Assembly (NCBI GenBank): GCA_031392315.1
Contig: JANMVC010000130.1
Span: forward strand, 1 to 41,444
Length of the DNA stretch: 41,444 nt
Direction of reading: 5' to 3'
DNA from: Pyrinomonadaceae bacterium
GTDB lineage: Bacteria; Acidobacteriota; Blastocatellia; Pyrinomonadales; Pyrinomonadaceae
Shown here: positions 6,681-22,554 of the stretch, one piece after another
How the letters are laid out: each line of letters starts with the position of its first letter
Numbering within the stretch: position 1 is the first letter of the stretch
Program-made: the position numbers and the translations under genes
The notes under the pieces: generated by a model
Seen by the model: the letters and a program-made list of their open reading frames with translations, nothing else
The model's database searches: none
What the model was told of the DNA's origin: nothing

Positions 6681-7303
6681 ACGTCGAAGGTCTGATCGAT
6701 GGCGTTGCCGCCGTCGTCCACGCCGATCACGCGCTGTTTCAGGTTGCCGGGTGACGTGATGGTAAGTTGCCCGCCAGCCTCCATGACGCGCGGGACAAAC
6801 TGCGCGACGATTTGAGCCTTGGTGTAATACTCATCATTCGGCGTGGGGGCGACGGAGCTGACCTGCGTGACGGCGTTTTGAAGTGTGATTTGGCCGATGA
6901 ATACTTTGGTTCTAGCCGTGCCTTCCTGAACCTCGATCTCGAGATACGCGGTCTTCGTTGAATCCGATCCGAGATAGGTATTCAGGAGGGCCGTGTTCAG
7001 GGCTAGTTCTCCGCTGAACACGTTTTCAGTTTCGTCCTTGGACCAAACCGTTAGGAGGGCCAGCGGCGCCGCTGAATCATAAACGCTATTGATTGCAACG
7101 GAGAGTGACAGCGGAGAAATATCAATCCGATTGAAGCGATCTAATCGGCTCGAAGTGAGGTCGGGTTCAACGAGGACAACTTGAATCGGAACGGTCTCGT
7201 ATTTGGTGAAGGAAGAGAGTTGAACGCTGCCTCCGTTCATGTCCGACACCTGCAACTTCTTATCGGGGAAGTTGACAAAAAGTTTTCGCCAAGCCGTTGC
7301 CAT
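6677..7303 (-). CDS. Hypothetical tail-tip/baseplate-region protein (208 aa)
   Basis: ATG at 7303 lies 8 nt downstream of late motif copy 1. Its stop overlaps the next start (ATGA). Confidence 0.75.
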   Translation of the reverse strand: MATAWRKLFVNFPDKKLQVSDMNGGSVQLSSFTKYETVPIQVVLVEPDLTSSRLDRFNRIDISPLSLSVAINSVYDSAAPLALLTVWSKDETENVFSGELALNTALLNTYLGSDSTKTAYLEIEVQEGTARTKVFIGQITLQNAVTQVSSVAPTPNDEYYTKAQIVAQFVPRVMEAGGQLTITSPGNLKQRVIGVDDGGNAIDQTFDV

Positions 7304-7311: not shown

Positions 7312-7340
7312 GGGTTAGGCGTGCAAATGGCGGGGGTCAA
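7312..7340 (-). promoter_or_regulatory. Late start-associated/promoter-like motif copy 1 (TTGACC-17 nt-TAACCC)
   Basis: Minus strand reads TTGACCcccgccatttgcacgccTAACCCcggcgtcaATG. Confidence 0.5.
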
Positions 7341-7369
7341 TTACGGAAATCATGTGCCTAGTGGTCCAC

Positions 7370-7996
7370 CTAAATAACGTCGATCTGGCGGTGAGCAACC
7401 AATGTTAGCAGTGTGGTCAACTCGGAAACGCTCAGCCCCACAGACGGCAGGAGGACGGATATTGCGGGACCACCAAACGTCACCGACTCGATCACGTCGG
7501 GCCTTTTAAAGCCATTCACATACGTGGTCGATGAGACACGGACGCGATAAGCGCACGGATGAGCGAACCAAACCCTGCTGCGGCGCGCCACCGCAGCGGT
7601 CGCGCTCAACCCCTGGGTGTTCAATCCAAAGGACGTTACCGTTGGAAACGCTAAGAGCCCGCCGAGTGTGCCGGCCCGGATGACAACACCGGCGCGATCG
7701 ACATACAGGTCGGCCCCACCGGGTCGAGTCATGTCGAGAGTGAACGGCGCGGAGTCGCGTGACAAGAAGGTGATGGATGGCGCATTGAAGTCGAACTCGT
7801 CCAGTTTAGCTTTCATCGCCGCGAGCAATGCCGCCACTGCGATCTCGCGATCTATTCCTGTTGGAACGTCATTCGACCCCAAATTGATAGTCGTCCAACC
7901 AACTACTTCGCAAGGTGGCGGTGGGCGAATCAGCCGATCTCTAGCAATCGACTTTACATAATCCCGATTTACGGATCGATCTGGCGCCCTGCTCAT
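7370..7996 (-). CDS. Hypothetical tail-tip protein (208 aa)
   Basis: ORF abuts the upstream stop. Positioned in the tail-tip block. Confidence 0.75.
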   Translation of the reverse strand: MSRAPDRSVNRDYVKSIARDRLIRPPPPCEVVGWTTINLGSNDVPTGIDREIAVAALLAAMKAKLDEFDFNAPSITFLSRDSAPFTLDMTRPGGADLYVDRAGVVIRAGTLGGLLAFPTVTSFGLNTQGLSATAAVARRSRVWFAHPCAYRVRVSSTTYVNGFKRPDVIESVTFGGPAISVLLPSVGLSVSELTTLLTLVAHRQIDVI

Positions 7997-8584
7997 TTAA
8001 TACTTCGTCCACGCTCGCCCGTCGCGATTCAAATCAATCAAAGTAATCGGCGCGTCATTCGGATCGGTCAACGGTGTGTAACTCGGGCCGCTGGTAATCT
8101 TGCCGCTCAATTCTATCGCGAAGATGAGTTGGTTCGCACTCTTAAAGTAGGGCGTCAGGACTTGGATTTCCGCCACCCCCGCGATCGTTTTAGTTCGCTT
8201 CGTCGCGGATGTGTAAGTGTAGGTTGCGGTGAAAGCGTCGCCGTCCGAACTGTAGACGATGCTTTGCCCGTTCCAATTTGAAACCATGTGCTCGAAAGGA
8301 CGAGCGATGTAAATCTCGTCGCCTGTCTCCGCTGTGCCGGTCCATTTCTTGCAGGAATAGAAATCGTTTTCGATCGAGACAAGTCGATATTGCTGAACCG
8401 ATGCGCCAGCCGACGCCCTCGGAATATCCGCGGTGAACGTTGTCCCGTTCGCCTTTCGGTTGACATTGATCCCGCGCCCGCCCACGGGAGAAATCTCGCG
8501 CACGTATTCAATCAGCCGATTAAACTCAGCCCAGACCGGGCGATACAATCCGATCTCGGGAATCTTGCGCGGAGTTTGATTCAT
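7997..8584 (-). CDS. Hypothetical tail-tip protein (195 aa; start moved to MNQTPRK)
   Basis: ATG at 8584 lies 1 nt after the upstream TAA (8586-8588). The longer track start would overlap the upstream gene. Confidence 0.7.
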   Translation of the reverse strand: MNQTPRKIPEIGLYRPVWAEFNRLIEYVREISPVGGRGINVNRKANGTTFTADIPRASAGASVQQYRLVSIENDFYSCKKWTGTAETGDEIYIARPFEHMVSNWNGQSIVYSSDGDAFTATYTYTSATKRTKTIAGVAEIQVLTPYFKSANQLIFAIELSGKITSGPSYTPLTDPNDAPITLIDLNRDGRAWTKY

Positions 8585-8585
8585 T

Positions 8586-9356
8586 TTACCAAGCGAGGTT
8601 TCCGCCGGAGGTCGTGTAAGCCAGCAAGGACCACGGCGCGAACACGAGTTCAACGGTCTGTTCCGCGTAGTTGCCGACGATCTCCACGCGTTGCCCGCGC
8701 TTGCGCCAGCCCCATTGATAATCCGAACTCGGCGCGGCGGGTGTCGCCGGGAGGTTGAACGCCACCCCCGCAGGAAGCTGAAGCTGATTCGTGGTGTAAA
8801 TGTAAAACCCCGTGTCGAGCGTGATCTGCCCTCCAGCGTAAGCGTAGCTGAGATCCACCTGCCGAAACCGTCGCAGGCAAACGAAGTCGATTTGATAACC
8901 GGTCACGCCGGATTTGAGATGCCGGACAACACTCAGGAACAGTGGGGAAGTAATGACTGATGCGCCTGGTGCTTTTCCAACTGCTAGTTCCGCTCTCTCT
9001 CGGTAGGTCGTGGAGCCCTCTGCGGCAATGTCATCAAAGGCTGCAATTTCCGCCATTACCCCGGGCAATTCAAAGATGCTTTTCTCCTGTGCCTCCGTCG
9101 TGATCTCGTATCGGTCTAAAACTTCCTGCGTCGGTTCGTTGATCGGAATTCGAGCCGACAACCCGTAAACCGGCCCGTCGATTTTGTTAATCCGAAAACT
9201 AATCCCCTGCGCCTTGAGCGTGACACCGAGTCCAAAGATCGCGCTCTGTGAACCTGCGTAAAAACGATCCTCAACCTCAACGCCCGACTCCGCTTCAAAC
9301 GCCGGTTCGCGAGAAACCAGCGTGACGCCGCCGTAGCCTTTCCAGCGTGCGCTCAT
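8586..9356 (-). CDS. Hypothetical distal-tail protein (256 aa), directly after the tape measure
   Basis: ATGA overlap with the tape-measure stop. The function is inferred from position only. Confidence 0.7.
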   Translation of the reverse strand: MSARWKGYGGVTLVSREPAFEAESGVEVEDRFYAGSQSAIFGLGVTLKAQGISFRINKIDGPVYGLSARIPINEPTQEVLDRYEITTEAQEKSIFELPGVMAEIAAFDDIAAEGSTTYRERAELAVGKAPGASVITSPLFLSVVRHLKSGVTGYQIDFVCLRRFRQVDLSYAYAGGQITLDTGFYIYTTNQLQLPAGVAFNLPATPAAPSSDYQWGWRKRGQRVEIVGNYAEQTVELVFAPWSLLAYTTSGGNLAW

Positions 9357-10519
9357 CGTGTAACGTCCCTCACGACGATTCCATTGACGGAGAGCACTTG
9401 GTTAATGGCGGACAATAGTTCCACCTGCCGTTGCGGTTGCGCGGCGTTGGATGCGGCACCGGTGAAAGCGCCGATGCGACCGAATGCGGATTCTTCAATC
9501 CCGTTTCTGCTCTTCGATTTCGGCGTGCTCTTGGAATTCAGAGCGTGAACTTCAGAATCAATCTTCGCCTTGGCGAGCGCTAGAACCGCGTTGGCCTCTT
9601 CACCGAGTTGCAGTGTGAGTTGCCGCTGAATCTCGGCGCGCTCTTCCAGAAGTTCATTCAGCCGCTCCTCTTTGGTCAGTTGAGAAATGCGCGTGCGCTC
9701 ATTGATGTCGTCGGCTTCACCAGTGAGCTTCCGAACGCGGTCGTCGGTCTTTTCCAGTTCTTCCTTCTTGGAGTTGTCGGCGAGGATTTGATTTTCGTCG
9801 ATGGTTGGTTTCGCGCCGCCTCCGCCTAGCTTTTCCAGAAGCTTCACCACCGGCGCGGGAATTAAGCCGGAAGATACGAGCGTTGCCAGTCGCAACCCTA
9901 GAACCTTTGCGCTGGCGGCAATCCTAATCATGCCGTCATTGACAAGCCCCATGTTGTAGATCTCTTTGTCGGAGAACATCAAGACGCCATTCTTGGCCTG
10001 ATATAAATCCCCCATAGATGTAACGGCCTTTGCGGCTCCCTTGCCGAAAATGTCTACCATCTTCTCCGCCCGGTCCGCACTTAGCCCAGTCTCGTCAATC
10101 GCCTTCGCCATGCGTGTCCATGCCTCTGCGGGCTTCATTTTAGCAATGTCGGCGACAGAGATGCCAAATTTCTCTAACTTGTTTTCTTTTCCGTTCAGAG
10201 CGTCAGCCATTGCGCCGCGAAGTTTCAAAAATTGGGCAGTGAATCCCCCCACATCGGTGCCGCCAAGCTTTGCGGCAAGTGCAAATTCTTGGGCCTCTTT
10301 GTTAGTGATCCTGAGCTGCTCGCCCATCTCCTTGATCTCATCGCCGGTCTGTAAAATCTCACGGCCAAATGCGACGACCGCCCCAATTGTAAACGCTCCC
10401 GCCAGTTGGCTTTTTAGGTCTGTGCCGAACTGGTTAGCCCTCTTTGTCGCATCCGCCAAACCAGCGTCAAAACCCGTTTTATCAAGGCCGAGTTTTGCGA
10501 GTAAGCTAAGAATTGCCAT
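9353..10519 (-). CDS. Tail tape measure protein (short, 388 aa)
   Basis: Ala/Gly/Lys-rich helical protein (MAILSLLAKLGLDKTGFDAGLADATKRANQFG...) in the canonical position after the tube and chaperone. Confidence 0.7.
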   Translation of the reverse strand: MAILSLLAKLGLDKTGFDAGLADATKRANQFGTDLKSQLAGAFTIGAVVAFGREILQTGDEIKEMGEQLRITNKEAQEFALAAKLGGTDVGGFTAQFLKLRGAMADALNGKENKLEKFGISVADIAKMKPAEAWTRMAKAIDETGLSADRAEKMVDIFGKGAAKAVTSMGDLYQAKNGVLMFSDKEIYNMGLVNDGMIRIAASAKVLGLRLATLVSSGLIPAPVVKLLEKLGGGGAKPTIDENQILADNSKKEELEKTDDRVRKLTGEADDINERTRISQLTKEERLNELLEERAEIQRQLTLQLGEEANAVLALAKAKIDSEVHALNSKSTPKSKSRNGIEESAFGRIGAFTGAASNAAQPQRQVELLSAINQVLSVNGIVVRDVTR

Positions 10520-11144
10520 GAAACTTTCCTGATTTGATGTTCTCCGCGAGTTGTTCCGCTGCGGCTAAAGCCTGCTCCTTGGCGTCGCGTCCATACATTT
10601 TCACTTCGTTATTGAGCGCCTTCAAAACAACGTGATCCCAAAGACAGAGCGCCCATGACCGATCAAGGATTTCCGATTCACTGATATGCAAGTCGCGCAT
10701 GAGCGTGACCTTGATTAGTTCGATGGACGGCACAGCCAGCTCGCGAAAGTCGCCCGGGTTGAAATCGTAATCAGGAATCTTGCTGCCTTCCTTTAGGTAA
10801 TCCGCGAATTCTAGACATTTCGATTGCAAGTCGATCGGTCGGAACTTACGGAACCCAATCTTGACCCAGAACGAATCTGCGCCGGTCAACTGGTCGTGCC
10901 AGCGTCGCATGAATTCCGGCAGGTCTTGGTCATCGAAGGTCGCAATGTTTTGTTCCCATGTCTGGGAACAGATGAGAACCGACAACGCGAGATCGTGGTA
11001 GGCAGGTTCCCCTTCGTCGGCGGTGACGAAAGCGGATTTGACCCGGTGAAGAAGTAGAAGATGCCCGAGGCTAAGCGGACGCAAACGCAACCCGAGAATC
11101 GTTCTCGGTTCTGGCACCGCCGCTAAGTAAAATTCGTCGGTCAT
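10506..11144 (-). CDS. Putative tail assembly chaperone (positional), 212 aa
   Basis: Lies between the tube candidate and the tape measure. No slippery-site extension seen. Confidence 0.5.
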   Translation of the reverse strand: MTDEFYLAAVPEPRTILGLRLRPLSLGHLLLLHRVKSAFVTADEGEPAYHDLALSVLICSQTWEQNIATFDDQDLPEFMRRWHDQLTGADSFWVKIGFRKFRPIDLQSKCLEFADYLKEGSKIPDYDFNPGDFRELAVPSIELIKVTLMRDLHISESEILDRSWALCLWDHVVLKALNNEVKMYGRDAKEQALAAAEQLAENIKSGKFHGNS

Positions 11145-11147
11145 TCA

Positions 11148-11588
11148 TTACGCTGCGGCTGCCGTCGTTAAATCGTTCCCCTCGTCACCTTGTTCAAGTT
11201 CGAGGTCGATACTCACCACGCCTTCAACGCTGCGGCTCTGGGAAGCGCTGATGAGGTTGTAGGATGCGTCAATAACTGTCCCGCTCGCATCGACCGCCGT
11301 GATCGTAGTGCCAGGCGCGGGCATGTAGGCGTCGGCGCTACTATTGGCCGCACTGGCCGAGTTGGTCGGCGCCGCTGGAATCACCGTCATGGAAAGCGTC
11401 TTCTTGAAGCCGTGAAAGATTTGTGTGCGCAGAACGCCGTCATCGTCCACCACCTCGGTCATCTTGCTACCGCGATTGAAGCGCGCGCTCTGGGGGAAGG
11501 CGGGGTTCGTCGCGCTGACGATGCCAGCGGTGAAAGTGATTCCGCCGATGCTCCATTTTACGGCCCGGCCCTTAAGTGTCGCACTCAT
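11148..11588 (-). CDS. Putative major tail tube protein (146 aa)
   Basis: Position and size fit. The ATG lies 6 nt after late motif copy 2. Confidence 0.55.
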   Translation of the reverse strand: MSATLKGRAVKWSIGGITFTAGIVSATNPAFPQSARFNRGSKMTEVVDDDGVLRTQIFHGFKKTLSMTVIPAAPTNSASAANSSADAYMPAPGTTITAVDASGTVIDASYNLISASQSRSVEGVVSIDLELEQGDEGNDLTTAAAA

Positions 11589-11594
11589 GGACGG

Positions 11595-11623
11595 GGGTTA
11601 GAAACTGAAATGGCGGGCGTCAA
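11595..11623 (-). promoter_or_regulatory. Late motif copy 2 (TTGACG-17 nt-TAACCC)
   Basis: Minus strand reads TTGACGcccgccatttcagtttcTAACCCccgtccATG. The TTGACG contains the upstream TGA stop. Confidence 0.5.
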
Positions 11624-12057
11624 GCGGTCAATGCTTGGCTGCAACAATAAACATCCATCGAAAGTTCGCTGACCCACTGCCGATCTTCGATGCGACTGCC
11701 GCCGGCCAGACGATTGGAGATGCCGAATACTCCGAAGTCTGAAGTTGCCGCGCCGAGCTCAGTTGCCAAATCGTCGGACATGAAAACGCCGAGCACGATC
11801 CCAGCGGCGGTGCGCTGTTGTGCGACGGATGTATCATCTGCGCTCAATCGAAGTTCAACGGAAAGTTGCAGCGTGAAGTTGCCAGACCCCTGCGGAAACT
11901 CGGGTCCGTTCTGCGCGACCACGAGCGCGTGCGGAAGCGTCTTGGTGGAATCATCCGTGCCGGTGAAGACAAGCACGGGCGCGGCGCCGACAGACACGCC
12001 CATCGCCTCAATGAGCGCACGGCCGGCGGCTTCTAGCTTTTGGGGGAGGTCTTGCAT
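11620..12057 (-). CDS. Hypothetical head-tail connector/tail terminator-region protein (145 aa)
   Basis: ORF immediately upstream of the tube gene. Confidence 0.7.
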   Translation of the reverse strand: MQDLPQKLEAAGRALIEAMGVSVGAAPVLVFTGTDDSTKTLPHALVVAQNGPEFPQGSGNFTLQLSVELRLSADDTSVAQQRTAAGIVLGVFMSDDLATELGAATSDFGVFGISNRLAGGSRIEDRQWVSELSMDVYCCSQALTA

Positions 12058-12058
12058 G

Positions 12059-12226
12059 TCACGAATTCCAGCGGACGCCTTCCGCTTTGAGTTTCGCCGC
12101 GTTATCGACCATCCATCTGATTGGAATTATCGCAGCATAGGCACCCACCAGAACCAGAGCCGCAGAACCAATTACAACCCCTATTGCGACGAGCTGAAAA
12201 AACTCGAACGCTTCCCTTATTCTCAT
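12059..12226 (-). CDS. Unlisted micro-ORF, single-pass membrane peptide (55 aa)
   Basis: Manual translation gives MRIREAFEFFQLVAIGVVIGSAALVLVGAYAAIIPIRWMVDNAAKLKAEGVRWNS. TGATG overlap upstream; its stop lies 1 nt before the next ATG. Confidence 0.45.
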   Translation of the reverse strand: MRIREAFEFFQLVAIGVVIGSAALVLVGAYAAIIPIRWMVDNAAKLKAEGVRWNS

Positions 12227-12954
12227 CACTTCGCACTCGCTTTCTTTAGGTCGGGAGCCAATCGCCGGGCCAACTCCTTCACCATGTCTCGCGCCGTCAC
12301 GTCCAAAGCCAACTGTAATCCTTTCACCGACGTAGGCATCGGGTCGCCACCGGGCGCAGGTGGATTCGATTCGTTCCCCTTTAACGCGGTGTTTTGGATC
12401 ACGGCTTCAATCTTTGAATTCAGAGAGAACCTCGCAGGCTTTGCTCGGCCCTTCGGTTTCCCGTATTGCCGGGCATCGCCCGTGGACTTCAACCCGGACG
12501 GCTTGCCTTTGACAAAACTGAAAAGCGCATTCCGCGCCCCAATCCAACCGGATGCGATGAACCCAGCGGAGCGCACCTTGGACGCGATGTAATTTGCCAC
12601 GCGCTCTTCCATCGTTTCGCCCTTGGCGCCCCATTCCCCGGTGAGTTTGAATCGCTTGGCCAAAATTAGAGCAGCCAGGCTGTTTTCCTTGGCCTGATAC
12701 GCGCCCTGCTTTACCCGTATCTTCCCCTTGTTTTTGCCGCGCTTGATTTGCTGGAAGCTGACTTGCCGACCGATGGCCCCGAGGACGTGCGCGATCTGTT
12801 GTCGATTCGCTTTCATCGTATTCCGCACCGCTTCAATTGACACCTTGAGCGCCTGGCCGTTGGTGAAGTCCACACAAGTCCGAGAGCTGGTGGCTCTCAA
12901 ATCGTTGGCGGCTTGATGGAACTGCCGCATGTCCAGACCGATGGTGGGTTTCAT
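12226..12954 (-). CDS. Hypothetical connector-region protein (242 aa)
   Basis: ATGA overlap with the upstream gene. Basic, Lys-rich. Confidence 0.75.
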   Translation of the reverse strand: MKPTIGLDMRQFHQAANDLRATSSRTCVDFTNGQALKVSIEAVRNTMKANRQQIAHVLGAIGRQVSFQQIKRGKNKGKIRVKQGAYQAKENSLAALILAKRFKLTGEWGAKGETMEERVANYIASKVRSAGFIASGWIGARNALFSFVKGKPSGLKSTGDARQYGKPKGRAKPARFSLNSKIEAVIQNTALKGNESNPPAPGGDPMPTSVKGLQLALDVTARDMVKELARRLAPDLKKASAK

Positions 12955-13193
12955 CGCGCTGAAGTCCTCGCGTTAAAGGTGCCCGTCATATTCTCACACT
13001 TCCGCATTCTCGGAACGGCGGTGTAAGCAGGCATCAATCGTCGCTCGCAGGCGCTGGCTTCCGCGCGCGCGGCATCTCGGCTTCTCACCAAACCGGAACC
13101 AAGCGAAGCGTCGCCGTCGCCCAGCACGTTCCATCGATAACTCCCCGACGGGAGCTTCGTGTATTTCTTGCGAAAGAATCGTTGTCCTCTCAT
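12951..13193 (-). CDS. Small AP2/Arm-like putative DNA-binding protein (80 aa), paralogue of 24483..24776
   Basis: MRGQRFFRKKYTKLPSGSYRWNV..LGSGLVRSRDAARAEA matches the pattern MRGxRxFxKKxTxL..(Y/W)RWxV..G...AA. ATGA overlaps on both sides. Confidence 0.55.
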   Translation of the reverse strand: MRGQRFFRKKYTKLPSGSYRWNVLGDGDASLGSGLVRSRDAARAEASACERRLMPAYTAVPRMRKCENMTGTFNARTSAR

Positions 13194-13513
13194 TTATGCG
13201 CGCTCCTTAAATCCATCTGGAAACCGACGTTGAGCGGATCGATCTCCGTGCGGTCGATCCGGTAGGTCTTGGTTCCGATGATGACGGATTGACCCACGGT
13301 CGGCAGTGTGACGAAAACATTGGCCCCGACTGAATCCTTCAGCGCGATCACCAGCGTCATCTCCGGACCTTCCTCGAACCCGCCGAGTTCAAGCGCACGT
13401 CTCATATTCAACCCTGAGATGGTTCCGGTGTAGGAGTTACCCGAGAAGGTGAAGAGTTGCGGAGCGTCAGAAATCATGGCGCGTAGGTCATTGCCATGAA
13501 TGTCGGCCGTCAT
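13190..13513 (-). CDS. Hypothetical head-tail joining-region protein (107 aa)
   Basis: The ATG lies 8 nt after late motif copy 3. First gene of a new coupled string. Confidence 0.75.
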   Translation of the reverse strand: MTADIHGNDLRAMISDAPQLFTFSGNSYTGTISGLNMRRALELGGFEEGPEMTLVIALKDSVGANVFVTLPTVGQSVIIGTKTYRIDRTEIDPLNVGFQMDLRSAHK

Positions 13514-13521
13514 CGGAACGG

Positions 13522-13550
13522 GGGTTAGCAGCCGAAACCGCCGCTGTCAA
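13522..13550 (-). promoter_or_regulatory. Late motif copy 3 (TTGACA-17 nt-TAACCC)
   Basis: Minus strand reads TTGACAgcggcggtttcggctgcTAACCCccgttccgATG. Confidence 0.5.
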
Positions 13551-13601
13551 TTAGCATTGGACCGCGGGTGTCTTACCTGTCTGGACAATTACTGTCTAAC
13601 A

Positions 13602-13635
13602 ACGGAAAAGCCCCGGTCCTCAAACGAGGCGGGGC
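13602..13635 (-). terminator. Rho-independent terminator ending the membrane-protein cassette
   Basis: Minus-strand RNA reads GCCCCGCCUC-GUUU-GAGGACCGGGGC followed by UUUUCCGUUGUU (10 bp stem with a 2-nt bulge). Confidence 0.65.
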
Positions 13636-13661
13636 GCTAAACGTGACGAGAGGTTTGGGTT

Positions 13662-13967
13662 TTAGGACGGTTCTGGAGTGGCGTCGGGAACGATGTCATC
13701 GAGCGCCTGCGTGGTGATTTTCAATTCAGCAACGGCGGACTCGATGGCGGACAGGTCGCCGCCTGCATCGATGATGTCTCCCAGGCTTTTGAGTTTGGCC
13801 AGCACTTCGTCAATGCCCTTTCGGGTTTGCTGTCCAACCGCTCGAATTTCCGCTGCGATTTCTTCGGATGTTTTTGCCATAAGCTCTTTGAGTTCTTGGT
13901 GTCGTTTTTGTGTTTCGCTCAACCGCTCCAACCCGAGCCAGTCGAGCACGGAGCGAATCAAGCGCAT
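13662..13967 (-). CDS. Coiled-coil hypothetical protein (101 aa; start moved to MRLIRSV)
   Basis: ATG at 13967 lies 4 nt after the upstream TAA. The longer track ORF overlaps the barrel gene. Confidence 0.6.
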   Translation of the reverse strand: MRLIRSVLDWLGLERLSETQKRHQELKELMAKTSEEIAAEIRAVGQQTRKGIDEVLAKLKSLGDIIDAGGDLSAIESAVAELKITTQALDDIVPDATPEPS

Positions 13968-13971
13968 GGAT

Positions 13972-14571
13972 TTAGAACTTGAAACCGAACCCCGCGCGCA
14001 CGCGCACCGCGTTCCCGAGTTCGGACAATTCCTGTTCAAAGCCGTGAATGGCTTGCGCATCGGCAAAGATGGAGAACCTGTCCCGCCGGAATTCCAAACC
14101 GGCACCGGCGGCGAGAAGGTTTTCGTGCTGAACAAAGTCCCGGTGGTAGCCGCCAATCAGATACGGCGCGAACCCAGTCTGCTTGAGCGGGAAGTAGTAT
14201 TTGAGATTTCCGCCGGCGTCGCGGAATGACTCGAGCCACTGCGAATCGTCAATGCCTTCGCTGGTGACTTCAGCTTCGACGGTGAGCTTCTCCGTTAGTG
14301 AATAGCCGAGCGCCAGACCGCCGCCGTAGCTGAGTTCGCTATCCACTATGGACGCGGTGGCGAATGGTGAGAGGGTGACGCGGCCTTTTGAGAAGAGCGA
14401 AGGCGCGTCAGCAGCGTGAACCGATGCGCTGAAACAAAGGAGCATGGCGGCCAATGATAACTTTTGTGTTCGCTTCCTCCATCGAGGTGGACGGCAGTCA
14501 GGGAGCTTGTCGATTCCGATGATGGCGAGAGTTGCGACGACTAACAGCACGTTAATTTGTAGGAAAATCAT
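13972..14571 (-). CDS. Outer-membrane beta-barrel protein, Lom/Ail/OmpX-like moron (up to 199 aa, start uncertain)
   Basis: Internal signal-like segment KLSLAAMLLCFSASVHA-AD, alternating beta-strand pattern, and a C-terminal RAGFGFKF ending in Phe. Confidence 0.65.
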   Translation of the reverse strand: MIFLQINVLLVVATLAIIGIDKLPDCRPPRWRKRTQKLSLAAMLLCFSASVHAADAPSLFSKGRVTLSPFATASIVDSELSYGGGLALGYSLTEKLTVEAEVTSEGIDDSQWLESFRDAGGNLKYYFPLKQTGFAPYLIGGYHRDFVQHENLLAAGAGLEFRRDRFSIFADAQAIHGFEQELSELGNAVRVRAGFGFKF

Positions 14572-14572
14572 A

Positions 14573-14869
14573 TCAATTTTCGGTTTTTTTGGTTTCTTTG
14601 GTCACGGTCGTTGTCACGGATTCCGTCTGAGTCACTTCTAGTTCCGGCACAGGCGAACGCTGAAGGTAGGCCGCCGTCGAAATAATTCCGCTGACGAGGA
14701 AAGTGCCTAAAATCATCACGAGCAAATTGTGCAAACCATCGCGCAGGTTGTATTCCGATGGCGTCTGGCTGATGGCAATGAACCCGCTGGCCACTGCGCC
14801 CGCACCGCCGCCGATGAAGGCTGCGACGAGTCCGCGAAACCAAACGAGAGGGTCTTTCCATTTCGTCAT
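14573..14869 (-). CDS. Two-TM membrane protein with charged C-tail, holin-like (98 aa)
   Basis: MTKWKDPLVWFRGLVAAFIGGGAGAVASGFIAI...LLVMILGTFLVSGIISTAAYL then a TKETKKTEN tail. ATGA overlap upstream. Confidence 0.55.
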   Translation of the reverse strand: MTKWKDPLVWFRGLVAAFIGGGAGAVASGFIAISQTPSEYNLRDGLHNLLVMILGTFLVSGIISTAAYLQRSPVPELEVTQTESVTTTVTKETKKTEN

Positions 14870-14997
14870 TTTTTGATCCGGTAAGCCGCGAACATCAGGC
14901 TGACCCAAAGCACCAGCGCGGAAATGAGTAGCCAGAAGATGATCCACTCCACGTAGCGAACCGGCGATGACGTGAGCATTAAGGCGTGCATCGTCAT
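14866..14997 (-). CDS. Unlisted micro-ORF, single-pass membrane peptide (43 aa)
   Basis: Manual translation gives MTMHALMLTSSPVRYVEWIIFWLLISALVLWVSLMFAAYRIKK. Its stop overlaps the next ATG (ATGA). Confidence 0.45.
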   Translation of the reverse strand: MTMHALMLTSSPVRYVEWIIFWLLISALVLWVSLMFAAYRIKK

Positions 14998-15009
14998 CGC
15001 CGGATGGTG

Positions 15010-15279
15010 TTAACGCGTAGTCAAACCGGCCGGGTCGGCGTTCTTGGCCTTTGCAGACGCGACCGGCTGAGCTTTCTCAACGAGCGCGTCCACATCTTTG
15101 GCGGTGAGAACTTTGGTCTTCACCTCTTCCAAAAGCCCGAGCGCCTTCAAATCACCTTGCGGGATTTGTTGCCCGGCGTTGGCGATTAGAAATGCCGCGC
15201 GCTTGTCGCCCTCCAGCACTACAGACTTTCGATCCGTGGTGTAGTAGAGAGCGACAGGGGTGATGACAGGGATGTTCAT
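15010..15279 (-). CDS. Hypothetical protein (89 aa)
   Basis: ATGA overlap with the upstream gene. Confidence 0.7.
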   Translation of the reverse strand: MNIPVITPVALYYTTDRKSVVLEGDKRAAFLIANAGQQIPQGDLKALGLLEEVKTKVLTAKDVDALVEKAQPVASAKAKNADPAGLTTR

Positions 15280-15740
15280 TGCAGGGTGAGTGCCGTGAAG
15301 TTGGTGATGAACACGCCGAGCAAATTCGTGTTCTGGATCGATTTGACTCGCAAATACGTCCCGTTGGCGAGATTGGCCGTAGTCGGCAACATGTTCGTGT
15401 AGTAGTCATACCCGGTGGTCCCGTTCTGCGGAACGGATAGCGTGAAGGTATGGCTGTCCACAACGTCAGTTCCGTTCGCAAGTTGCTCGAGCGTGATGAC
15501 CATGTTGGTAGTCGATGCAGCGTTGGTGCCTGCGACTTTCAGCGCGAACCCTACACCGTTCTTACCGATCGAAATCAGGTTGGCCTGAGTTGTCGGAAGA
15601 TTGGTCGTGAATACACCAGCGATGAAGAAGTTGCTGGAGATCGTGATCGGCGTCTGGAACGTCGGCGGGGCGACAAACTGCGCTTGCAGTTGCGCGACCG
15701 CCAACGCGAGAACCGCTGCGATTTTCAAGAGTGTTTTCAT
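15276..15740 (-). CDS. Secreted-type protein directly after the capsid gene (154 aa; start moved to MKTLLK)
   Basis: N-terminus MKTLLKIAAVLALAVAQLQA-QF. The longer track start overlaps the capsid gene. Confidence 0.7.
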   Translation of the reverse strand: MKTLLKIAAVLALAVAQLQAQFVAPPTFQTPITISSNFFIAGVFTTNLPTTQANLISIGKNGVGFALKVAGTNAASTTNMVITLEQLANGTDVVDSHTFTLSVPQNGTTGYDYYTNMLPTTANLANGTYLRVKSIQNTNLLGVFITNFTALTLQ

Positions 15741-15777
15741 GTTCGTTTTCAGTGGAATGTTTCCGGTTCGGTTTTGG

Positions 15778-17643
15778 TTACACGTTCGGAATTCCGGTGA
15801 CGGTGCAGAACGACGCAGCGCGATAAACCACCAACGCCAGGCGCTCTTCAGCACGAATGGCGATCCGGTTGTATTTGAAATCCGAAGCGTCACTGTTGGT
15901 CATTTCCATCGTGAGTCCCATGCGCCGGAACAACTGCGCGCCGAGGCGGAAGGCGCCAACCAAGGCCGTGCCTTGCGCGATCGCAGTTGTCTCGATCACC
16001 GGTTTGCCCCACAGGAAACCCGCGACGGAATAACCACCTACGCCGTAGGTTCCAGAGAACGGACCCCCGGCGTAATACTGGCCGTTACTGTCTTTCGACC
16101 GGCGAGCATTACCCCAGTCGGTGGGGTTCATGATGATCGCGTCAGGCTCGAGGAAGGCAATGGTTCGAACCTTTTGCAGTCCTTTGTCGATAGCGTCGAA
16201 GATGGTGTTGCCCGCGTAGGCCTGCGTCTGAATGCTGCCGGTTTGGAGGATGCCCGTAATAGAGCTACCGCCGGCGCCGTTCAACAATTCGTTGTCTTCC
16301 TTGGCCTGAACCATGAAACCAAGGCGAGCGTTTACGTAGTCGCGCACCGCCGGATAATCGGAAAGCATTTCGTCGGAAATGCGTCCGATGACCGCGATCT
16401 TCTTGACCGCAAAATCAGTCTCGGCCAGGGAGAACGTCGCCTCAGGTTTTTCGCCTTCTTCCGCAACGGCGGTCGCCGCATTGGTGAAGCTGCTTTCCGT
16501 GAAGATTCGGATCGTCGAAGCCGTGGTTTCGCCCTGCGCCAGCAACTGCGCGATGGTCAACGGTTGCTGATTGACCACTGTGATCCCAGGCGGACGATCG
16601 TAGGAGGTCATGCCCGTGCTCAACAACGTGGCGCGAGTGTGACCGTCGCCCATGATGTCGCGCATCCCGAGGACGTTGTCGATTTCCAGCGCGATGTTTT
16701 TGCTCTTGGAGTTGCTCTTTGCAGCGCTGCGGAACAGCTCTGAGTTGACGAGTCTTTCGCCGATGCTGAATGCTCGAGTTTGACCGTCGCGAGTGCGGTC
16801 CCCATTGGAAGATGGGTCGATGACGGCGCGGCCTTCGATGGGCAGGCTTTCGAGCTTGGTAAGAAGCTCTTTGCGCAGCCGATCAGGAGACCATCCATCG
16901 CGAAGCGCCTGCTCGTAGATTTCGGTTTTGTTATGCCGCTTGCACAGCGCAAACATTTCGTTGAACTCGCCAGCGATGTCAGCACGGCTTGCGATAATCG
17001 CAGGCGCGGCCGGTGCGGGTGGAGTGGCAGGACCGCCGCCGCCAGTAGCGGGCGCGGGGTCGAGCAAAAGTTGAGAACGGATTTTCATGGGGTCTTCGAT
17101 TTCAATAGTGGTTTGGGGGATGGTCTTATCCTCGCGACCGATGCCGACCGATGCATCCGCCGGGATTGAGACAATCGAAATCTCCATAGGCGTCCAGCGC
17201 ATGGCTCGAAGTGTTTCAACTTCGTTCTCGATCTTCTCAGTCACCAGTTTGTGAACCCGGTATCCGACCGAAACCAATCGGCGAATCCCGTCTTTCACGT
17301 CCTGGAAAATTTCACTGGCGCGGGTAGAGTTTCCGAACCGCACAACGGCCGTGCCTCGGCTTTCCTTGATTTCCGCGCTCTCGATGACACCCACTTGATC
17401 CTCCCGATTATGGTCCATCAGGAGCGGCCCGCCGTTGTTCAGCCGGGTCAAGTCAACGGAATCGGGCTTGTGATCGAGGACTTCGTAGTAGCGGCCGATC
17501 TCCCAGTTGTATTGCTCAACCGGAAGCTCGGAGGAAAAGGAAAGCTCAACGGAACGGGAGTCTTCTTTCATCGCCGCCCGATTGACCTCGAACGTGCGAT
17601 AGATGATTCCGGACTTGAATTGGCGCTTTGCTTTTCCGCTCAC
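15778..17643 (-). CDS. Fused prohead protease - scaffold-like linker - HK97-family major capsid protein (621 aa, GTG start)
   Basis: N-terminal protease-like region (..EVLDHKPDSVDLTRLNNGGPLLMDHNREDQVGV..). C-terminal HK97 MCP-like region (..LEPDAIIMNPTDW..GKPVIETTAI..ALVGAFRLGAQLF..AIRAEERLAL). Confidence 0.85.
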   Translation of the reverse strand: MSGKAKRQFKSGIIYRTFEVNRAAMKEDSRSVELSFSSELPVEQYNWEIGRYYEVLDHKPDSVDLTRLNNGGPLLMDHNREDQVGVIESAEIKESRGTAVVRFGNSTRASEIFQDVKDGIRRLVSVGYRVHKLVTEKIENEVETLRAMRWTPMEISIVSIPADASVGIGREDKTIPQTTIEIEDPMKIRSQLLLDPAPATGGGGPATPPAPAAPAIIASRADIAGEFNEMFALCKRHNKTEIYEQALRDGWSPDRLRKELLTKLESLPIEGRAVIDPSSNGDRTRDGQTRAFSIGERLVNSELFRSAAKSNSKSKNIALEIDNVLGMRDIMGDGHTRATLLSTGMTSYDRPPGITVVNQQPLTIAQLLAQGETTASTIRIFTESSFTNAATAVAEEGEKPEATFSLAETDFAVKKIAVIGRISDEMLSDYPAVRDYVNARLGFMVQAKEDNELLNGAGGSSITGILQTGSIQTQAYAGNTIFDAIDKGLQKVRTIAFLEPDAIIMNPTDWGNARRSKDSNGQYYAGGPFSGTYGVGGYSVAGFLWGKPVIETTAIAQGTALVGAFRLGAQLFRRMGLTMEMTNSDASDFKYNRIAIRAEERLALVVYRAASFCTVTGIPNV

Positions 17644-17649
17644 GAGCGC

Positions 17650-17678
17650 GGGTTAGAAAGCGGAATGGCGGTCGTCAA
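17650..17678 (-). promoter_or_regulatory. Late motif copy 4 (TTGACG-17 nt-TAACCC)
   Basis: Minus strand reads TTGACGaccgccattccgctttcTAACCCgcgctcGTG. Confidence 0.5.
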
Positions 17679-17687
17679 CAGGGATTT

Positions 17688-19229
17688 TTATTCCGGCTGT
17701 TGCGGCTCCGGTGCGGCTGGCGTCAGTCTGGCCTCAGCTTCCAATGTGTGTTCAACCTCAGACAGCGTGATGCCGCGAGAATCGGCCGCGCGCTTGTCGT
17801 CTTCGATTTCATCGAACAGCTCGTCGCGGTCGATGTTCCGCTCGGCAAGGATCCGTGAGTGTGACGTGAGACAGTTACGAAGCTGCGAAATGTCCGCGTT
17901 GACCTCTTGCTGCGGGTTCACGTAGCTCCAGCGTCGGCCCTTGAACTCGGGGGAATTGAACTTATCGAACTTGCCCATCGGCAACGCAACGGCGCCCGTG
18001 GTAATCGACATCAAAAGAAACTCTTTAAAAATCTCTTCGTGGAAATTCTCGATCATCCAATACTGAATCGCTTTGGCGGCGTCGCGTTCATCGTCCAGCC
18101 CGAGCTTTCCGGACGCGAAGTTCACGCTCTCCATGTCGTTAGCGAGCGTGTTGTAACTCATGTCCAAACCGCTCGCGATGGCGCGCAGTCCGGTCTTCAT
18201 GAAAACGTGATAGCTGGAATTCGGGTGATTCCAGTCCAGGACTTTCAGATCCATTCCGAAGGGCAACTGCTCGATAGCTCCCGGCTCCGCGTCCATCGAA
18301 TGATTGCCGTCTGCGTCGGTCTCGCCGGTGTAGGACGTGTTCGCGTTATTCGGAATCAGGAAACCCATCTTGGACGCTGATGCTCTCGCCGCGGTGACTT
18401 CAGCCTCTTCGTATTTGCCCAGCATGTTGAGCGCGTAGGCTGCGGTCGCGAGCCACGGGTTGCCACGGGATTGACCGAATCGCCGGAACAAAGCCAGGTG
18501 CATGACCTCTTCGGCCGGTAAACGGTAGCGCCGTTTCTCCGCGCGCCGTTGACCGTAGGAATCGTTTGGGTTGTAGGTCAGCAGATGATAGGCAACCGGC
18601 TTTTCCCACTTGTCTAACTCGACGCCCATCCGGACCTCGTTACCGTTGGCCGGATTCACGGTGTCGTAATCGTCATCGATATAATCGGACTCCAAAATTT
18701 GCAGGGCGAACCCAAACGGATTCTCGGGCCTGCGGATCTTGCGGATCAAGACCTCGCCATCCACGGCCACGGTTTCGAGGATCAACCGCTCGACATCGCA
18801 AAAGCTTAACTTTCCGGTGACGGTGCAGTTTTCCTTGCGACCCCAGCGCCACCATTGATCGGCAATTAGTTTGTTCGCGAACAGGTCTAGCTTGCCGGGA
18901 ATCAAATCGCCGCCCTGAAATTTATCAGGGTCTTTCGCCTTGTTCCGAAAGTGCATCCCGGATTGACCGAGAACATTTTTCTTGAGCGTGGAAAGAAACC
19001 GTTTCGCGTAAAGATTGTTGTCGCGCAGTTCACGTGACCGATTGCGCAGCGTCTTCAGGTCGGTGCGCGCCTGGGCGTCTGCGCTCAACGTGGTTTGCGT
19101 CCAACTCGCAGTCAGTCGGTTGATGGCTGCGGCTTGGAAATTCGCCATGGCCTCGCGCACCTGCACCTTGCGGTAAAGCCCGACTCGATTCAGTAGCCGG
19201 GTGACGAGTGGAGCCGTGGGCTTTTTCAT
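17688..19229 (-). CDS. Portal protein, lambda gpB-type (513 aa; start moved to MKKPTAP)
   Basis: Size and position after the gpA-type terminase and gpW-like gene. The ATG at 19229 overlaps the upstream TGA. Confidence 0.8.
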   Translation of the reverse strand: MKKPTAPLVTRLLNRVGLYRKVQVREAMANFQAAAINRLTASWTQTTLSADAQARTDLKTLRNRSRELRDNNLYAKRFLSTLKKNVLGQSGMHFRNKAKDPDKFQGGDLIPGKLDLFANKLIADQWWRWGRKENCTVTGKLSFCDVERLILETVAVDGEVLIRKIRRPENPFGFALQILESDYIDDDYDTVNPANGNEVRMGVELDKWEKPVAYHLLTYNPNDSYGQRRAEKRRYRLPAEEVMHLALFRRFGQSRGNPWLATAAYALNMLGKYEEAEVTAARASASKMGFLIPNNANTSYTGETDADGNHSMDAEPGAIEQLPFGMDLKVLDWNHPNSSYHVFMKTGLRAIASGLDMSYNTLANDMESVNFASGKLGLDDERDAAKAIQYWMIENFHEEIFKEFLLMSITTGAVALPMGKFDKFNSPEFKGRRWSYVNPQQEVNADISQLRNCLTSHSRILAERNIDRDELFDEIEDDKRAADSRGITLSEVEHTLEAEARLTPAAPEPQQPE

Positions 19230-19459
19230 GGTTTCTGAAGCCGTAGCTTGATGCCAACCGCAACCATGTTGACCGTGATGAACACAGAAGATCGGGCAGC
19301 ACTGAACCGCGCCACATTGTAGCGCCGGAAGTGTCCGTAATGCGAAGCGCACACGGATGGAGCTCCAAGGATCAACTTCCACCAAGGCTTAAGCTTTAAG
19401 TGAATCACCGATCCTCTTTGCTCAGTGCGGCAATCGAATCCTGGAATTGAAATCTTCAT
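19226..19459 (-). CDS. Hypothetical protein (77 aa) wedged between the gpW-like and portal genes
   Basis: ATGA overlaps at both ends. Odd composition, so uncertain. Confidence 0.45.
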   Translation of the reverse strand: MKISIPGFDCRTEQRGSVIHLKLKPWWKLILGAPSVCASHYGHFRRYNVARFSAARSSVFITVNMVAVGIKLRLQKP

Positions 19460-20019
19460 CGGAGAAATCGAATCAAGACGTTCTTACCTTTGCCGCCAGT
19501 GGCTTCGCCTTCTTCGGCTTTTACCTTGGTTGCAAAGTCGTCGCGAAGTTTCAGCAGGTCGGCCACGGTCATCTTCACCACGGATCGCCCGACAGCCTGC
19601 TGAACGTAACTCTGCTGGTCGTGTGTGGCGCGGCCTTCCAGAACCGCATTGATGGAATCCAGACATCGCCTCGCGTGCGTGCGCCCGTCATGCGGCGTGG
19701 TGATAGTGGCGAAGTTTGGAGTGACTTCGATGGTGCCGGATGCAACGGGCTTCCGGTCGCCGCTCTTGGAAACGAACGCTTGGAAGTGGTAGATGCCGGG
19801 CGTGTAGGCGCCAGTTACATCCGGGCTCAGGTCAACGGAGTAATCGTTGCCGTCAGTCGCGGCTGCGATGTCGATGGCATCGTGCGCGAAATTTCCGCGC
19901 AGATAGTAGGTGAGTGTCCAGCCTTCGGAGACGGGATAATCCGTCAGGGTGCGCTTCCACTGAGCGCGATCGCCTGCGGCAATTTTGGTCGGTTCTTGAT
20001 ACGGTATTTCAAAGGCCAT
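19456..20019 (-). CDS. gpW-like head-tail joining protein with an extra N-terminal beta domain (187 aa from the ATG)
   Basis: The C-terminal ..CLDSINAVLEGRATHDQQSYVQQAVGRSVVKMTVADLLKLRDDF.. resembles lambda W. The track start at 20034 is TTG. Confidence 0.55.
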   Translation of the reverse strand: MAFEIPYQEPTKIAAGDRAQWKRTLTDYPVSEGWTLTYYLRGNFAHDAIDIAAATDGNDYSVDLSPDVTGAYTPGIYHFQAFVSKSGDRKPVASGTIEVTPNFATITTPHDGRTHARRCLDSINAVLEGRATHDQQSYVQQAVGRSVVKMTVADLLKLRDDFATKVKAEEGEATGGKGKNVLIRFLR

Positions 20020-20091
20020 GCGCTTTCGCGGCAAGGCCCCGGCCCCGGTGCCACCATCGAACGCACCCGACGAACCCGCCGCTTGCGGGCG

Positions 20092-20120
20092 GGGTTAGGT
20101 TGCGAAATGGCGGGTTTCAA
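20092..20120 (-). promoter_or_regulatory. Late motif copy 5 (TTGAAA-17 nt-TAACCC), here about 72 nt before the ATG
   Basis: Minus strand reads aaatcacttcTTGAAAcccgccatttcgcaaccTAACCCcgcc, followed by a GC hairpin. Confidence 0.5.
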
Positions 20121-20130
20121 GAAGTGATTT
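20111..20130. repeat. 20-nt repeat CGGGTTTCAAGAAGTGATTT, copy A
   Basis: Identical to 20687-20706. Overlaps the TTGAAA of late motif copy 5. Confidence 0.9.
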
Positions 20131-20136
20131 CGAGAC

Positions 20137-20686: not shown

Positions 20687-20706
20687 CGGGTTTCAAGAAG
20701 TGATTT
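20687..20706. repeat. 20-nt repeat CGGGTTTCAAGAAGTGATTT, copy B
   Basis: Perfect match to copy A. Confidence 0.9.
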
Positions 20707-20938: not shown

Positions 20939-20955
20939 GTTTCAAGAAGTGATTT
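20939..20955. repeat. 17-nt core GTTTCAAGAAGTGATTT, copy C
   Basis: Perfect 17-nt match. Overlaps the TAA stop of the 74-aa gene. Confidence 0.9.
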
Positions 20956-22532: not shown

Positions 22533-22554
22533 TCCTTTTTTCTTGACCGGATTT

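Follow-up and report, generated by a model that had tools for sequence, protein, structure and literature searches.

Five copies of a fixed-geometry motif lie between positions 7312 and 20120 of contig JANMVC010000130.1 (the window: the whole stretch of DNA analysed, 41,444 nucleotides), in gaps of a phage late-gene block, and we sought to understand what these elements do. They are probably activator-dependent late promoters of a temperate phage that yield leaderless or nearly leaderless mRNAs; promoter activity, the position of the transcription start and leaderless translation are features that we infer from the sequence. The window itself is a complete, circular, temperate phage genome. 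Its first 103 nt (1-103) are repeated exactly at its end (41342-41444) and therefore close it into a circle of ~41.3 kb, in which the genes are nearly all on the minus strand and ATGA overlaps join most of the late ones.

The pattern TTGAM-N18-TAACCC (M, A or C) has five exact matches in the whole window, all on the minus (gene) strand, and none in 100 dinucleotide-preserving shuffles. The first-pass annotation of this sequence had reported the five copies and proposed the comparison with shuffled sequence, and the five copies are confirmed. Each copy joins a -35-like hexamer to an invariant -10-like TAACCC through a spacer of exactly 17 nt (5/5 copies). The spacer contains CCGCCATT in four copies and GCGGCGGTTT in the third, as originally described, and the 17-mer box of this phage reads TTGACGCCCGCCATTTC. 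All five copies occupy intergenic gaps of the otherwise ATGA-coupled late block, and in copies 1 to 4 a start codon follows TAACCC after only 6-8 nt, again in agreement with the annotation. The copies are as follows.

7312-7340, minus strand: putative late promoter copy 1, TTGACC CCCGCCATTTGCACGCC TAACCC, 8 nt before ATG 7303 of gene 6677-7303 (208 aa, distal-tail region)
11595-11623, minus strand: putative late promoter copy 2, TTGACG CCCGCCATTTCAGTTTC TAACCC, 6 nt before ATG 11588 of gene 11148-11588 (146 aa, tail-tube position by gene order)
13522-13550, minus strand: putative late promoter copy 3, TTGACA GCGGCGGTTTCGGCTGC TAACCC, with the variant box GCGGCGGTTT, 8 nt before ATG 13513 of gene 13190-13513 (107 aa)
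17650-17678, minus strand: putative late promoter copy 4, TTGACG ACCGCCATTCCGCTTTC TAACCC, 6 nt before GTG 17643 of the protease-capsid fusion gene 15778-17643
20092-20120, minus strand: putative late promoter copy 5, TTGAAA CCCGCCATTTCGCAACC TAACCC, ~72 nt before ATG 20019 of the gpW-like/head-tail joining gene 19456-20019

The ~72-nt leader region of copy 5 is GC-rich and carries a hairpin, CCCGCCCGCAAGCGGCGGG, and a weak GAAAG before ATG 20019; a repeat, AAATCACTTCTTGAAAC (20114-20130), overlaps the upstream half of the copy. A weight matrix built from the five copies was scanned over the genome as a 17-mer and as a 29-mer. It scores the copies at 21-28 and 37-45 bits, respectively, and the next-best genome site at only 10.9 and 6.2 bits, with no box copy found outside the five late junctions. 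A degenerate sixth copy proposed at 36531-36559 falls outside the top 16 weight-matrix sites and was dropped. The bare pattern with two mismatches allowed is not enriched (12 found, 7.6 expected).

Relatives were gathered through capsid homologues (836 at E <= 1e-10), which led to the syntenic loci L001, L002, L003/L004/L019, L009, L005/L006, L007/L008, L020-L024, L042, L098, L100 and L107-L109. Of these, L001 is Ga0604629_0001058 (42,087 bp), L002 is JAXOUH010037726.1 (34,926 bp), L003 is k141_407031 (45,408 bp), L009 is SRR22868762_25441 (39,196 bp) and L005 is Ga0634879_0000033 (159,476 bp). Single-protein capsid scans of genome and viral collections returned no matches, and an alignment query was required; a metagenome scan with the gpW-like protein yielded 7 loci, and the TerS (small terminase subunit) alignment was too divergent for such a scan. 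Megablast of 14 kb found no close cultured-phage relative, and tblastn with TerL (large terminase subunit) gave at most 38% identity, to Roseobacter, Clostridium and Acidithiobacillus phages. The nearest species-genome matches are a prophage in a Verrucomicrobiota metagenome-assembled genome (MAG; 47%, capsid domain) and a Candidatus Udaeobacter MAG (40%), and from these capsid matches the phage host is probably a member of the Verrucomicrobiota.

TTGAC-type elements are present in uncultured relatives at the same five junctions, before the gpW-like, capsid, 107-aa, tail-tube-position and 208-aa genes, as the first-pass annotation had proposed to check. Capsid identity of the relatives that carry these elements is 40-74% (69% for L001). 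The closer ones share TTGAC-N5-CCATTT followed by a start codon at a fixed distance. The copy 1 junction carries the element in L001, L002, L003, L009 and L024; the copy 2 junction in L001 and L002, with a 52-nt version bearing a Shine-Dalgarno (SD) sequence in L003 and L009; the copy 3 junction in L003 and L009; and the copy 4 (capsid) junction in at least 10 relatives. L002 has four identical copies of TTGACCAACTCCATTTG, each exactly 37 nt from ATG, L003 has five copies of TTGACGTGCACCATTT, and L009 has four copies of TTGACGTGATCCATTT plus one with a degenerate -35. The L001 element reads TTGACNNGGGC(C/G)(A/G)TTT and then TA(G/A)CTC, and that of L107 reads TTGACGCGAACCATTC. Among the fetched loci the exact pattern TTGACNNNNNCCATTT is confined to the window-type group, and all its sites but one stray lie on the gene strand. 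The short contigs L105-L107, examined as possible transcript-derived assemblies, begin 39-349 nt upstream of the start codon, which says nothing on where transcripts start, and unbiased 10-mer repeat mining across the loci gave output too noisy to be of use.

The distance from TTGAC to the start codon was measured with start codons called blind to the motif, as the first ATG or GTG of long, non-overlapping open reading frames (ORFs), and starts that follow an intergenic gap were taken as junction starts. Across 14 related loci, 37 of 128 junction starts have TTGAC within 80 nt upstream, and in 24 of these 37 the distance is 35-38 nt (35 nt, n=5; 36 nt, n=2; 37 nt, n=14; 38 nt, n=3). This distance thus occurs at 24/128 junction starts (18.8%) compared with 0.68% of all ATG/GTG positions. 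The stricter architecture TTGNNN-(16-18)-TANNNN-(5-9)-start is found at 25 of 134 junction starts versus 1.0% in the background and 6 of 164 coupled starts (binomial p ~2e-24). A -35 hexamer (6), a spacer of optimal length (17), a -10 hexamer (6) and a further 6-9 nt add up to 35-38 nt, which puts the first base of the start codon where transcription would be expected to begin or 1-2 nt past that point. The same architecture recurs in relatives without CCATTT: TTGNNN-17-TAA(A/G)G(C/G)-(6-8)-ATG in L007/L008, TTGACA-17-TAGCGC-8-ATG in L023, TTGNNN-17-TAGGCG-(6-9)-start in L024, TTGACG-17-ACAATT-7-ATG in L098, TTGACA-17-TAACGA-8-ATG before the L109 capsid gene, and TTGCCA-17-TAATTC-7-ATG and CTTTCC-17-TATGAT-8-ATG in L010, the prophage of a Verrucomicrobiota MAG. 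The 17-nt spacing is seen in L001, L007, L023, L024, L098, L109 and L010 as well, and this geometry is the main reason to read the elements as promoters that start at the start codon.

As candidate sigma-70-type promoters, the elements have a -35 close to TTGACA, with TTGAC kept at orthologous junctions, and a spacer of exactly 17 nt where 17 ± 1 nt is expected. The -10 departs from the TATAAT-like form with A-11 and T-7: TAACCC has T-12 and A-11 but C at -7, and matches at 2/6 positions, so the first-pass remark that the hexamer lacks its final T is correct. A T at -7 is present in 90-99% of promoters outside alpha-proteobacteria (PMC7703639). Its absence from TAACCC suggests a defective core promoter in need of a factor bound at the box. 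A canonical promoter scan did not call the five sites and showed no enrichment, and a terminator scan found no terminators flanking the copies.

The conserved box was delimited by aligning the copies of each genome at TTGAC and taking a per-genome consensus. In the window, L001, L002, L003 and L009, positions 1-17 are conserved and comprise TTGAC, five phage-specific bases and CCATTT(C/G). Positions 18-37 vary freely in L002, L003 and L009, and the window and L001 additionally keep their own -10 regions, CTAACCCC and AATA(G/A)CTCG. L007, L024 and L023 instead conserve a block around the -10 and the bases that follow it (GGCCCGTAAGGCGGC, GCACCATAGGCGGC and CTGGCAATAGCGCTGC). Boxes are identical within a genome in 4/4 copies of L002 and in 4/5 copies each of L003 and L009, while the N5 segment differs between genomes (NCCCG, NNGGG, CAACT in L002, GTGCA in L003, and GTGAT). 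On the proposed promoter the box would span ~-36 to -20, with TTGAC followed by the 11 bp of N5-CCATTT at ~-30 to -20. TTGAC (positions 1-5) and CCATTT (positions 11-16) are about one helical turn apart and would thus present the same DNA face. Because identity is limited to ~17 bp and differs between syntenic, homologous phages, it points to selection by a co-evolving, sequence-specific factor; recent duplication is an unlikely source, because it would have preserved the flanks too. It is therefore plausible that a phage-lineage-specific DNA-binding protein, most likely an activator, acts at the box.

Combining these features, we propose that host RNA polymerase carrying its primary sigma factor would read the five elements as late promoters, with TTGAC as the -35, a 17-nt spacer, and TAACCC as a crippled -10 that has T-12 and A-11 and lacks T-7. 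In four copies the first base of the start codon (A or G) comes 7-9 nt past the -10, where transcription would be expected to begin, so that the capsid gene, the gene at the tail-tube position and two other late genes would be expressed from mRNAs with no leader or with one no longer than 2 nt. Copy 5 would drive a leadered gpW-like/portal transcript. A factor bound at the box would compensate for the defective -10 and restrict firing to the late phase.

The earlier proposal that the elements are promoters giving leaderless late mRNAs thus holds in part: fixed geometry and occurrence at the same junctions in relatives speak for it, but copy 5 appears to be leadered by ~72 nt. No SD core is present at -18 to -5 in the four start-adjacent copies, whose starts are ATG (3) and GTG (1), and the observation that TAACCC leaves no room for an SD sequence is true for these four. 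It is nevertheless weak evidence for leaderless starts, because an SD core of at least 4 nt precedes only 12 of the 43 phage genes, most of which rely on coupling. The 52-nt tail-tube junctions of L003 and L009 carry an SD-like GAAAGG, and the ~72-nt leader of copy 5 carries GAAAG, which is consistent with leaderless and short, SD-bearing leaders being two interchangeable solutions downstream of the same promoter. About 10% of the transcription starts mapped by Cappable-seq in the verrucomicrobium Akkermansia muciniphila are leaderless (PMC4782308), and in mycobacteria ATG or GTG at +1 is necessary and sufficient for leaderless initiation (PMC4633059). Folding of the four junction RNAs was no better than that of shuffles (z -0.2 to -0.7), and an Rfam search returned no matches.

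That a box-binding factor exists, where it originates and whether it acts as activator or repressor are likewise points that we infer, and the factor could belong to the host. In favor of the dedicated factor suggested by the first-pass annotation are a phage-specific box that is kept while the remaining 20 nt drift and a -10 without T at -7; set against these, no sigma factor or activator was recognized in the profile scans detailed below. Several proteins near the terminase genes were inspected. The 280-aa protein encoded after TerL (21768-22610) has two zinc ribbons, a basic repeat region and a faint DksA-like zinc-finger match (E 0.0098), and it shares the motif C..C...KTCSKPC (a TCSKPC zinc ribbon) with the N-terminus of the L001 protein at 4747-5337, just before TerS. 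It was rejected as a candidate for the factor, as its gene is not conserved among relatives. The L001 4747-5337 and L003 4484-5197 proteins have an HNH-type C-terminus by inspection and no Pfam match. More generally, proteins encoded just upstream of TerS in relatives look HNH-type or DnaD-like by inspection, with no supporting Pfam match, and one matched nothing. In L005, a 147-aa protein two genes upstream of TerS (3091-3534) contains a helix-turn-helix, SYKQIGKELRVTKAWMSRL, that resembles sigma region 4, and the protein may be a late regulator of that phage; the window has no recognized counterpart.

Several results weigh against this proposal. Pfam and PHROG scans of 56 ORFs (most of the genome's ORFs) detected no sigma factor and no MotA/AsiA, Q, Ogr/C, RinA/ArpU-type or AraC-type protein, and within the 10-kb flanks of relatives no homologue of window genes was found except TerS and virion genes. 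The low use of SD sequences (12/43 genes) allows SD-independent internal initiation on read-through transcripts, and GTG, which works poorly in some bacteria, is the codon at two of the starts predicted to be leaderless. With TTGAC most often 37 nt away, the start codon comes 9 nt past the -10, toward the far end of the usual range for start-site selection, which makes a leader of 1-2 nt as likely as none. The host assignment comes solely from 40-47% capsid matches to MAG contigs, and phage and host are uncultured. The most direct misfit is found in L005/L006 (46% capsid identity, on the 159-kb contig), in which three boxes (TTGACTCCC...) lie only 20-21 nt before start codons: TTGACTCCCCGCAGTTTTTGA-ATG, TTGACTCCCGACAATTCTTGT-ATG and TTGACTCCCCCATATTTTCG-ATG at 9980-10003, 14211-14234 and 19773-19795 of L005, and also in L006. 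These boxes fill the whole gap between the upstream stop codon and ATG, and the start codons after them are confirmed by N-terminal homology. At 20-21 nt, a -35 reading of the box cannot yield a transcript that contains those codons. A fourth L005 box lies 66 nt before its start, and on the short contig L034 a box that hardly differs, TTGACTCCCGCGCATTT, stands at the customary 37 nt. The choices are that L005 uses the box in another way or that the function of the box is independent of a -35 role, and this geometry lowers our confidence in the promoter reading.

The L005 geometry keeps alive a reading in which the 16-17-nt box would act by itself as a compact promoter or as a site where polymerase is loaded, and transcripts would begin a few bases past CCATTT. 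Window genes would then have SD-less leaders of ~13-16 nt, L005 genes would be leaderless, and the tail-tube genes of L003 and L009 would have ~30-nt leaders with an SD sequence; this is the sole reading that fits both L005, where the box lies 4-5 nt before ATG, and the 52-nt GAAAGG junctions. CCATTT also resembles CCCCATNT, the -10 of heat-shock sigma promoters. We nonetheless judge this reading very improbable. It leaves the tight box-to-start distance in the family (19-22 nt) without a reason and the TA at positions 24-25 of the window and L001 unexplained, and relatives keep TTG-17-TA-(6-8)-ATG without any CCATTT. Nothing is conserved 13-17 nt upstream of CCATTT, TTGAC being only 5 nt away, and no phage RNA polymerase or sigma factor was recognized in the Pfam/PHROG scans of the 41-kb genome. 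Least probable of the readings considered, by a little, is that the elements act at the RNA level to start translation within a polycistronic late mRNA, recognized by rRNA or by a factor of phage or host origin, in the manner of the start-associated sequences (SAS) of cluster K mycobacteriophages that the first-pass annotation had offered. The fixed distance and single orientation before uncoupled genes without SD sequences would suit such an element, and the low SD use of this phage means that other initiation modes must exist. The elements, however, contain no SD core, offer no complementarity argument and show no RNA structure, and they precede structural genes. The family-wide invariant part is the DNA -35 consensus at promoter spacing, and copy 5 and the 52-66-nt cases tolerate very different distances when the leader has an SD-like GAAAG(G). 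SAS elements, moreover, are 13 bp long with an AGGAG core, lie 3-7 bp from the start and precede non-structural genes only (PMC3203893), and the SAS-like suggestion was set aside.

Two further alternatives were weighed. The elements might be ordinary host-sigma promoters without a dedicated factor, the spacer having been conserved through cassette copying, gene conversion or a host-clade preference for ATTT in the spacer, and the late genes being boosted constitutively or by read-through. We consider this unlikely, though it is the alternative to which we assign the most weight: the -35 and spacing are canonical, the Pfam/PHROG scans yielded no factor gene, and L098 (TTGACG-17-ACAATT-7-ATG) and L010 combine near-consensus -10s with the same geometry. 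Yet only positions 1-17 are identical within genomes and the adjoining 20 nt have fully diverged, which speaks for selection and against recent copying; phages whose late genes are homologous and syntenic have different boxes; five unregulated promoters before virion genes are unexpected in a temperate phage; and a -10 without T at -7 would be unusual for a plain promoter (PMC7703639). The box could instead be where a phage repressor binds, an operator of the asymmetric, monomer type exemplified by the stoperators of mycobacteriophage L5, overlapping the -35 and spacer and shutting late promoters or elongation in the lysogen. Sites that are asymmetric, intergenic, phage-specific and in a single orientation, and that overlap a TTGAC -35, are what L5-type sites look like (PMC9283540), and the phage is temperate, with an integrase (38235-39140) and divergent repressor-like and cro-like genes of the ribbon-helix-helix (RHH) type. 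This reading is nevertheless improbable, given that no box occurs in the immunity/early-promoter region or anywhere outside the five late junctions. The immunity region carries GTTAAC repeats instead, the sites number five and not more than 20, their position is fixed relative to start codons and not to gene ends, and a weak -10 favors activation over repression. Sigma-54 (-24/-12), sigma-32 (CCCCATNT), extracytoplasmic function (ECF) sigma and Bacteroidetes -7/-33 promoters, an IHF site, a marbox and Dam/GATC sites were rejected on spacing or sequence.

Returning to activator-dependent promoters, the elements can be set beside several known systems. Leaderless mRNAs are common in Actinobacteria and Deinococcus, and lambda cI transcribed from PRM is the classic phage case. 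Like sigma-70-type leaderless promoters, the window elements have a TTGAC -35, a 17-nt spacer, a -10 that starts with TA, ATG or GTG at the expected +1 and no SD sequence; they differ in the -10 without T at -7, in the phage-specific 17-bp box over the -35 and half of the spacer, and in the presence of five such elements inside one late operon. Phage promoters that depend on phage factors include the T4 middle promoters, where MotA/AsiA act at a -30 box, the late promoters driven by Mu C and P2 Ogr, and those of RinA/Ltr-type late activators. With these the window shares several phage-specific consensus copies before late gene groups and a defective core promoter, but no homologue of MotA/AsiA, Mu C, P2 Ogr or RinA/Ltr-type factors was detected among the 56 ORFs scanned. 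In T4 sigma appropriation, an activator box centered near -30 replaces the -35 next to a good -10, and the phage encodes both MotA and AsiA. The window shows the reverse of the T4 middle and Mu late arrangement, with a canonical TTGAC -35 retained, a poor -10, and a box at ~-36 to -20 rather than upstream. ECF-sigma promoters have an AAC core (GGAAC-like) in the -35 and a CGT core in the -10, both of which are absent from every copy.

The L5 stoperator site contains a TTGAC(A) -35-like core. Sites of this cluster A, L5 gp71 type are asymmetric and phage-specific, lie in short intergenic spaces and keep a single orientation relative to transcription, with the same asymmetric site at the early lytic promoter/immunity region and more than 20 copies genome-wide (PMC9283540). 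The elements of the window and its relatives are also oriented with transcription, but in the window they number only five, all before late genes and in promoter geometry, and the early and immunity promoters lack them. Cluster K SAS are, similarly, repeated, asymmetric, single-orientation motifs just upstream of starts. They have an AGGAG SD core within 13 bp, 3-7 bp before the start, and are found in the non-structural half only (PMC3203893), whereas the window motif spans 29 nt with -35/-10 architecture and no AGGAG, its conserved part begins 35-37 nt upstream, and all copies lie in the structural block 7312-20120. The elements belong to none of the SAS, stoperator, MotA-box, ECF and Q-binding families. 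As concepts, promoters, late activators and leaderless mRNAs are all established. The apparent combination here is that of a canonical -35, a phage-specific 11-bp spacer extension, a -10 without T at -7 and a start codon at +1, and we did not find such a combination, repeated in a virion operon and conserved across a phage lineage, described in the literature searched.

A more far-reaching version of the proposal is tentative, and we think it more apt to fail than to hold. In it, uncultured temperate phages, probably of Verrucomicrobiota, would drive their virion genes from four or five internal late promoters, at which a rapidly co-evolving factor reads the bipartite TTGAC-N5-CCATTT, opens a -10 without T at -7 and starts transcription exactly on the start codon; such a switch would be unlike MotA/AsiA, Q, Ogr/C and RinA and would impose obligatory leaderless translation on the major capsid and tail proteins. 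If the promoter reading is right, it would offer a first view of the timing and expression of virion genes in phages of a poorly studied, largely uncultured bacterial group. The late block would be not one antiterminated transcript but a set of abundant structural genes, each with a private promoter and an mRNA that starts at the initiation codon, and the factor bound at the box would make a candidate for an orthogonal transcription switch. Should the elements prove to be plain host promoters, the finding is ordinary. The 17-bp boxes provide a simple signature for grouping related uncultured phages, possibly by immunity or regulatory type. Gene callers that require a ribosome-binding site would misplace starts of this kind, and callers appear to have misplaced two starts here. 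The gpW-like gene starts at ATG 20019 (MAFEIP, the same as the N-termini of relatives) and not at TTG 20034 of the longest ORF, and the called start of the L009 capsid gene, 5594, is probably 42 nt too late, as ATG 5552 lies 37 nt after the box.

Relatives also show other arrangements at late-gene starts. The L010 prophage has a junction repeat composed of the palindrome TGAGAAAnTTCTCA and a half-site, upstream of TTGCCA/TTGTCA-17-TAATTC/ATAATT promoters (5830-5900, 8803-8880, 11822-11900, 15119-15190 and 20110-20200); the spacer ATTGAGAYAG is conserved, and several sites lie 7-11 nt before ATG. In the subgroup L020, L105, L108 and L109, CTTTACTTTAACGATAACG is repeated immediately before late-gene starts (L108 3480-3520 and 17060-17105; L109 4385-4425, 6660-6699 and 15790-15834). 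Its core TTAACGATAA is also present as the reverse complement TTATCGTTAA, and this occurrence in both orientations suggests a dimeric binding site. At the capsid junctions of L025-L033 (38% capsid identity) and at L005 7150-7181 and 12570-12609, the start codon comes directly after a terminator-like GC hairpin and T-run (for example, catcggcttttttctATG and ggcggtttttatttATG), which leaves no room for a promoter or an SD sequence.

The gene labels of the first-pass annotation stand for capsid, portal and gpW-like, which are backed by profile matches, whereas tail tube, tail-tip and head-tail are assigned by gene order only. The principal genes of the phage are as follows.

9353-10519: tape-measure-like gene, by profile match
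15778-17643, minus strand: protease-major capsid fusion (PF04586 and PF05065), with a predicted leaderless GTG start
17688-19385, minus strand: lambda-type portal, by profile match
19456-20019, minus strand: gpW-like/head-tail joining gene, by profile match, with the corrected start and N-terminus MAFEIP
22555-24492: GpA-type TerL, by profile match
25116-25505: Nu1-like TerS, by profile match or inspection
around 37568-38192: RHH-like divergent gene pair, by reading of the sequence
38235-39140, plus strand: tyrosine integrase, by profile match or inspection

Other genes recognized by profile match or inspection encode AAA_24, PDDEXK, RuvC-like and DUF1376 proteins of recombination and replication, a D12 methylase, an HNH protein and a PAPS reductase. 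A control region (37763-37890) separates the cro-like RHH gene (37568-37762, minus strand) from the repressor-like RHH gene (~37891-38192, plus strand). GTTAAC motifs are repeated within it (GGTTAACC, GTTAGTTAA and GGTTAACAAGTTAACC, the last directly abutting ATG) and are likely operators; the listed ORF start of the repressor-like gene, 37578, is too early, and the cro-like gene has no SD sequence. The 251-nt gap upstream of TerS holds, at 25505-25640 (minus strand), the CTAG-containing repeats TATGCTAGGT, CCCTAGGT, GCCTAGCT and CTATGCTAGT, which are candidate terminase-binding or cos sites. Since this gap lacks the late motif, transcription of TerS and TerL must come from elsewhere. The exact 17-nt repeat AAATCACTTCTTGAAAC that overlaps copy 5 occurs three times on the minus strand (20114-20130, 20690-20706 and 20939-20955), compared with 0.01 expected. 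Its two other sites, within the variable block of genes that separates TerL from the gpW-like gene, resemble separate promoters with extended -10s (TTGAAA-18-TGgCATAGT and TTGAAA-19-TGgTTATTA), the first of which is followed by ~200 nt without an obvious ORF, and the three-copy repeat may mark a second regulon or a small RNA.

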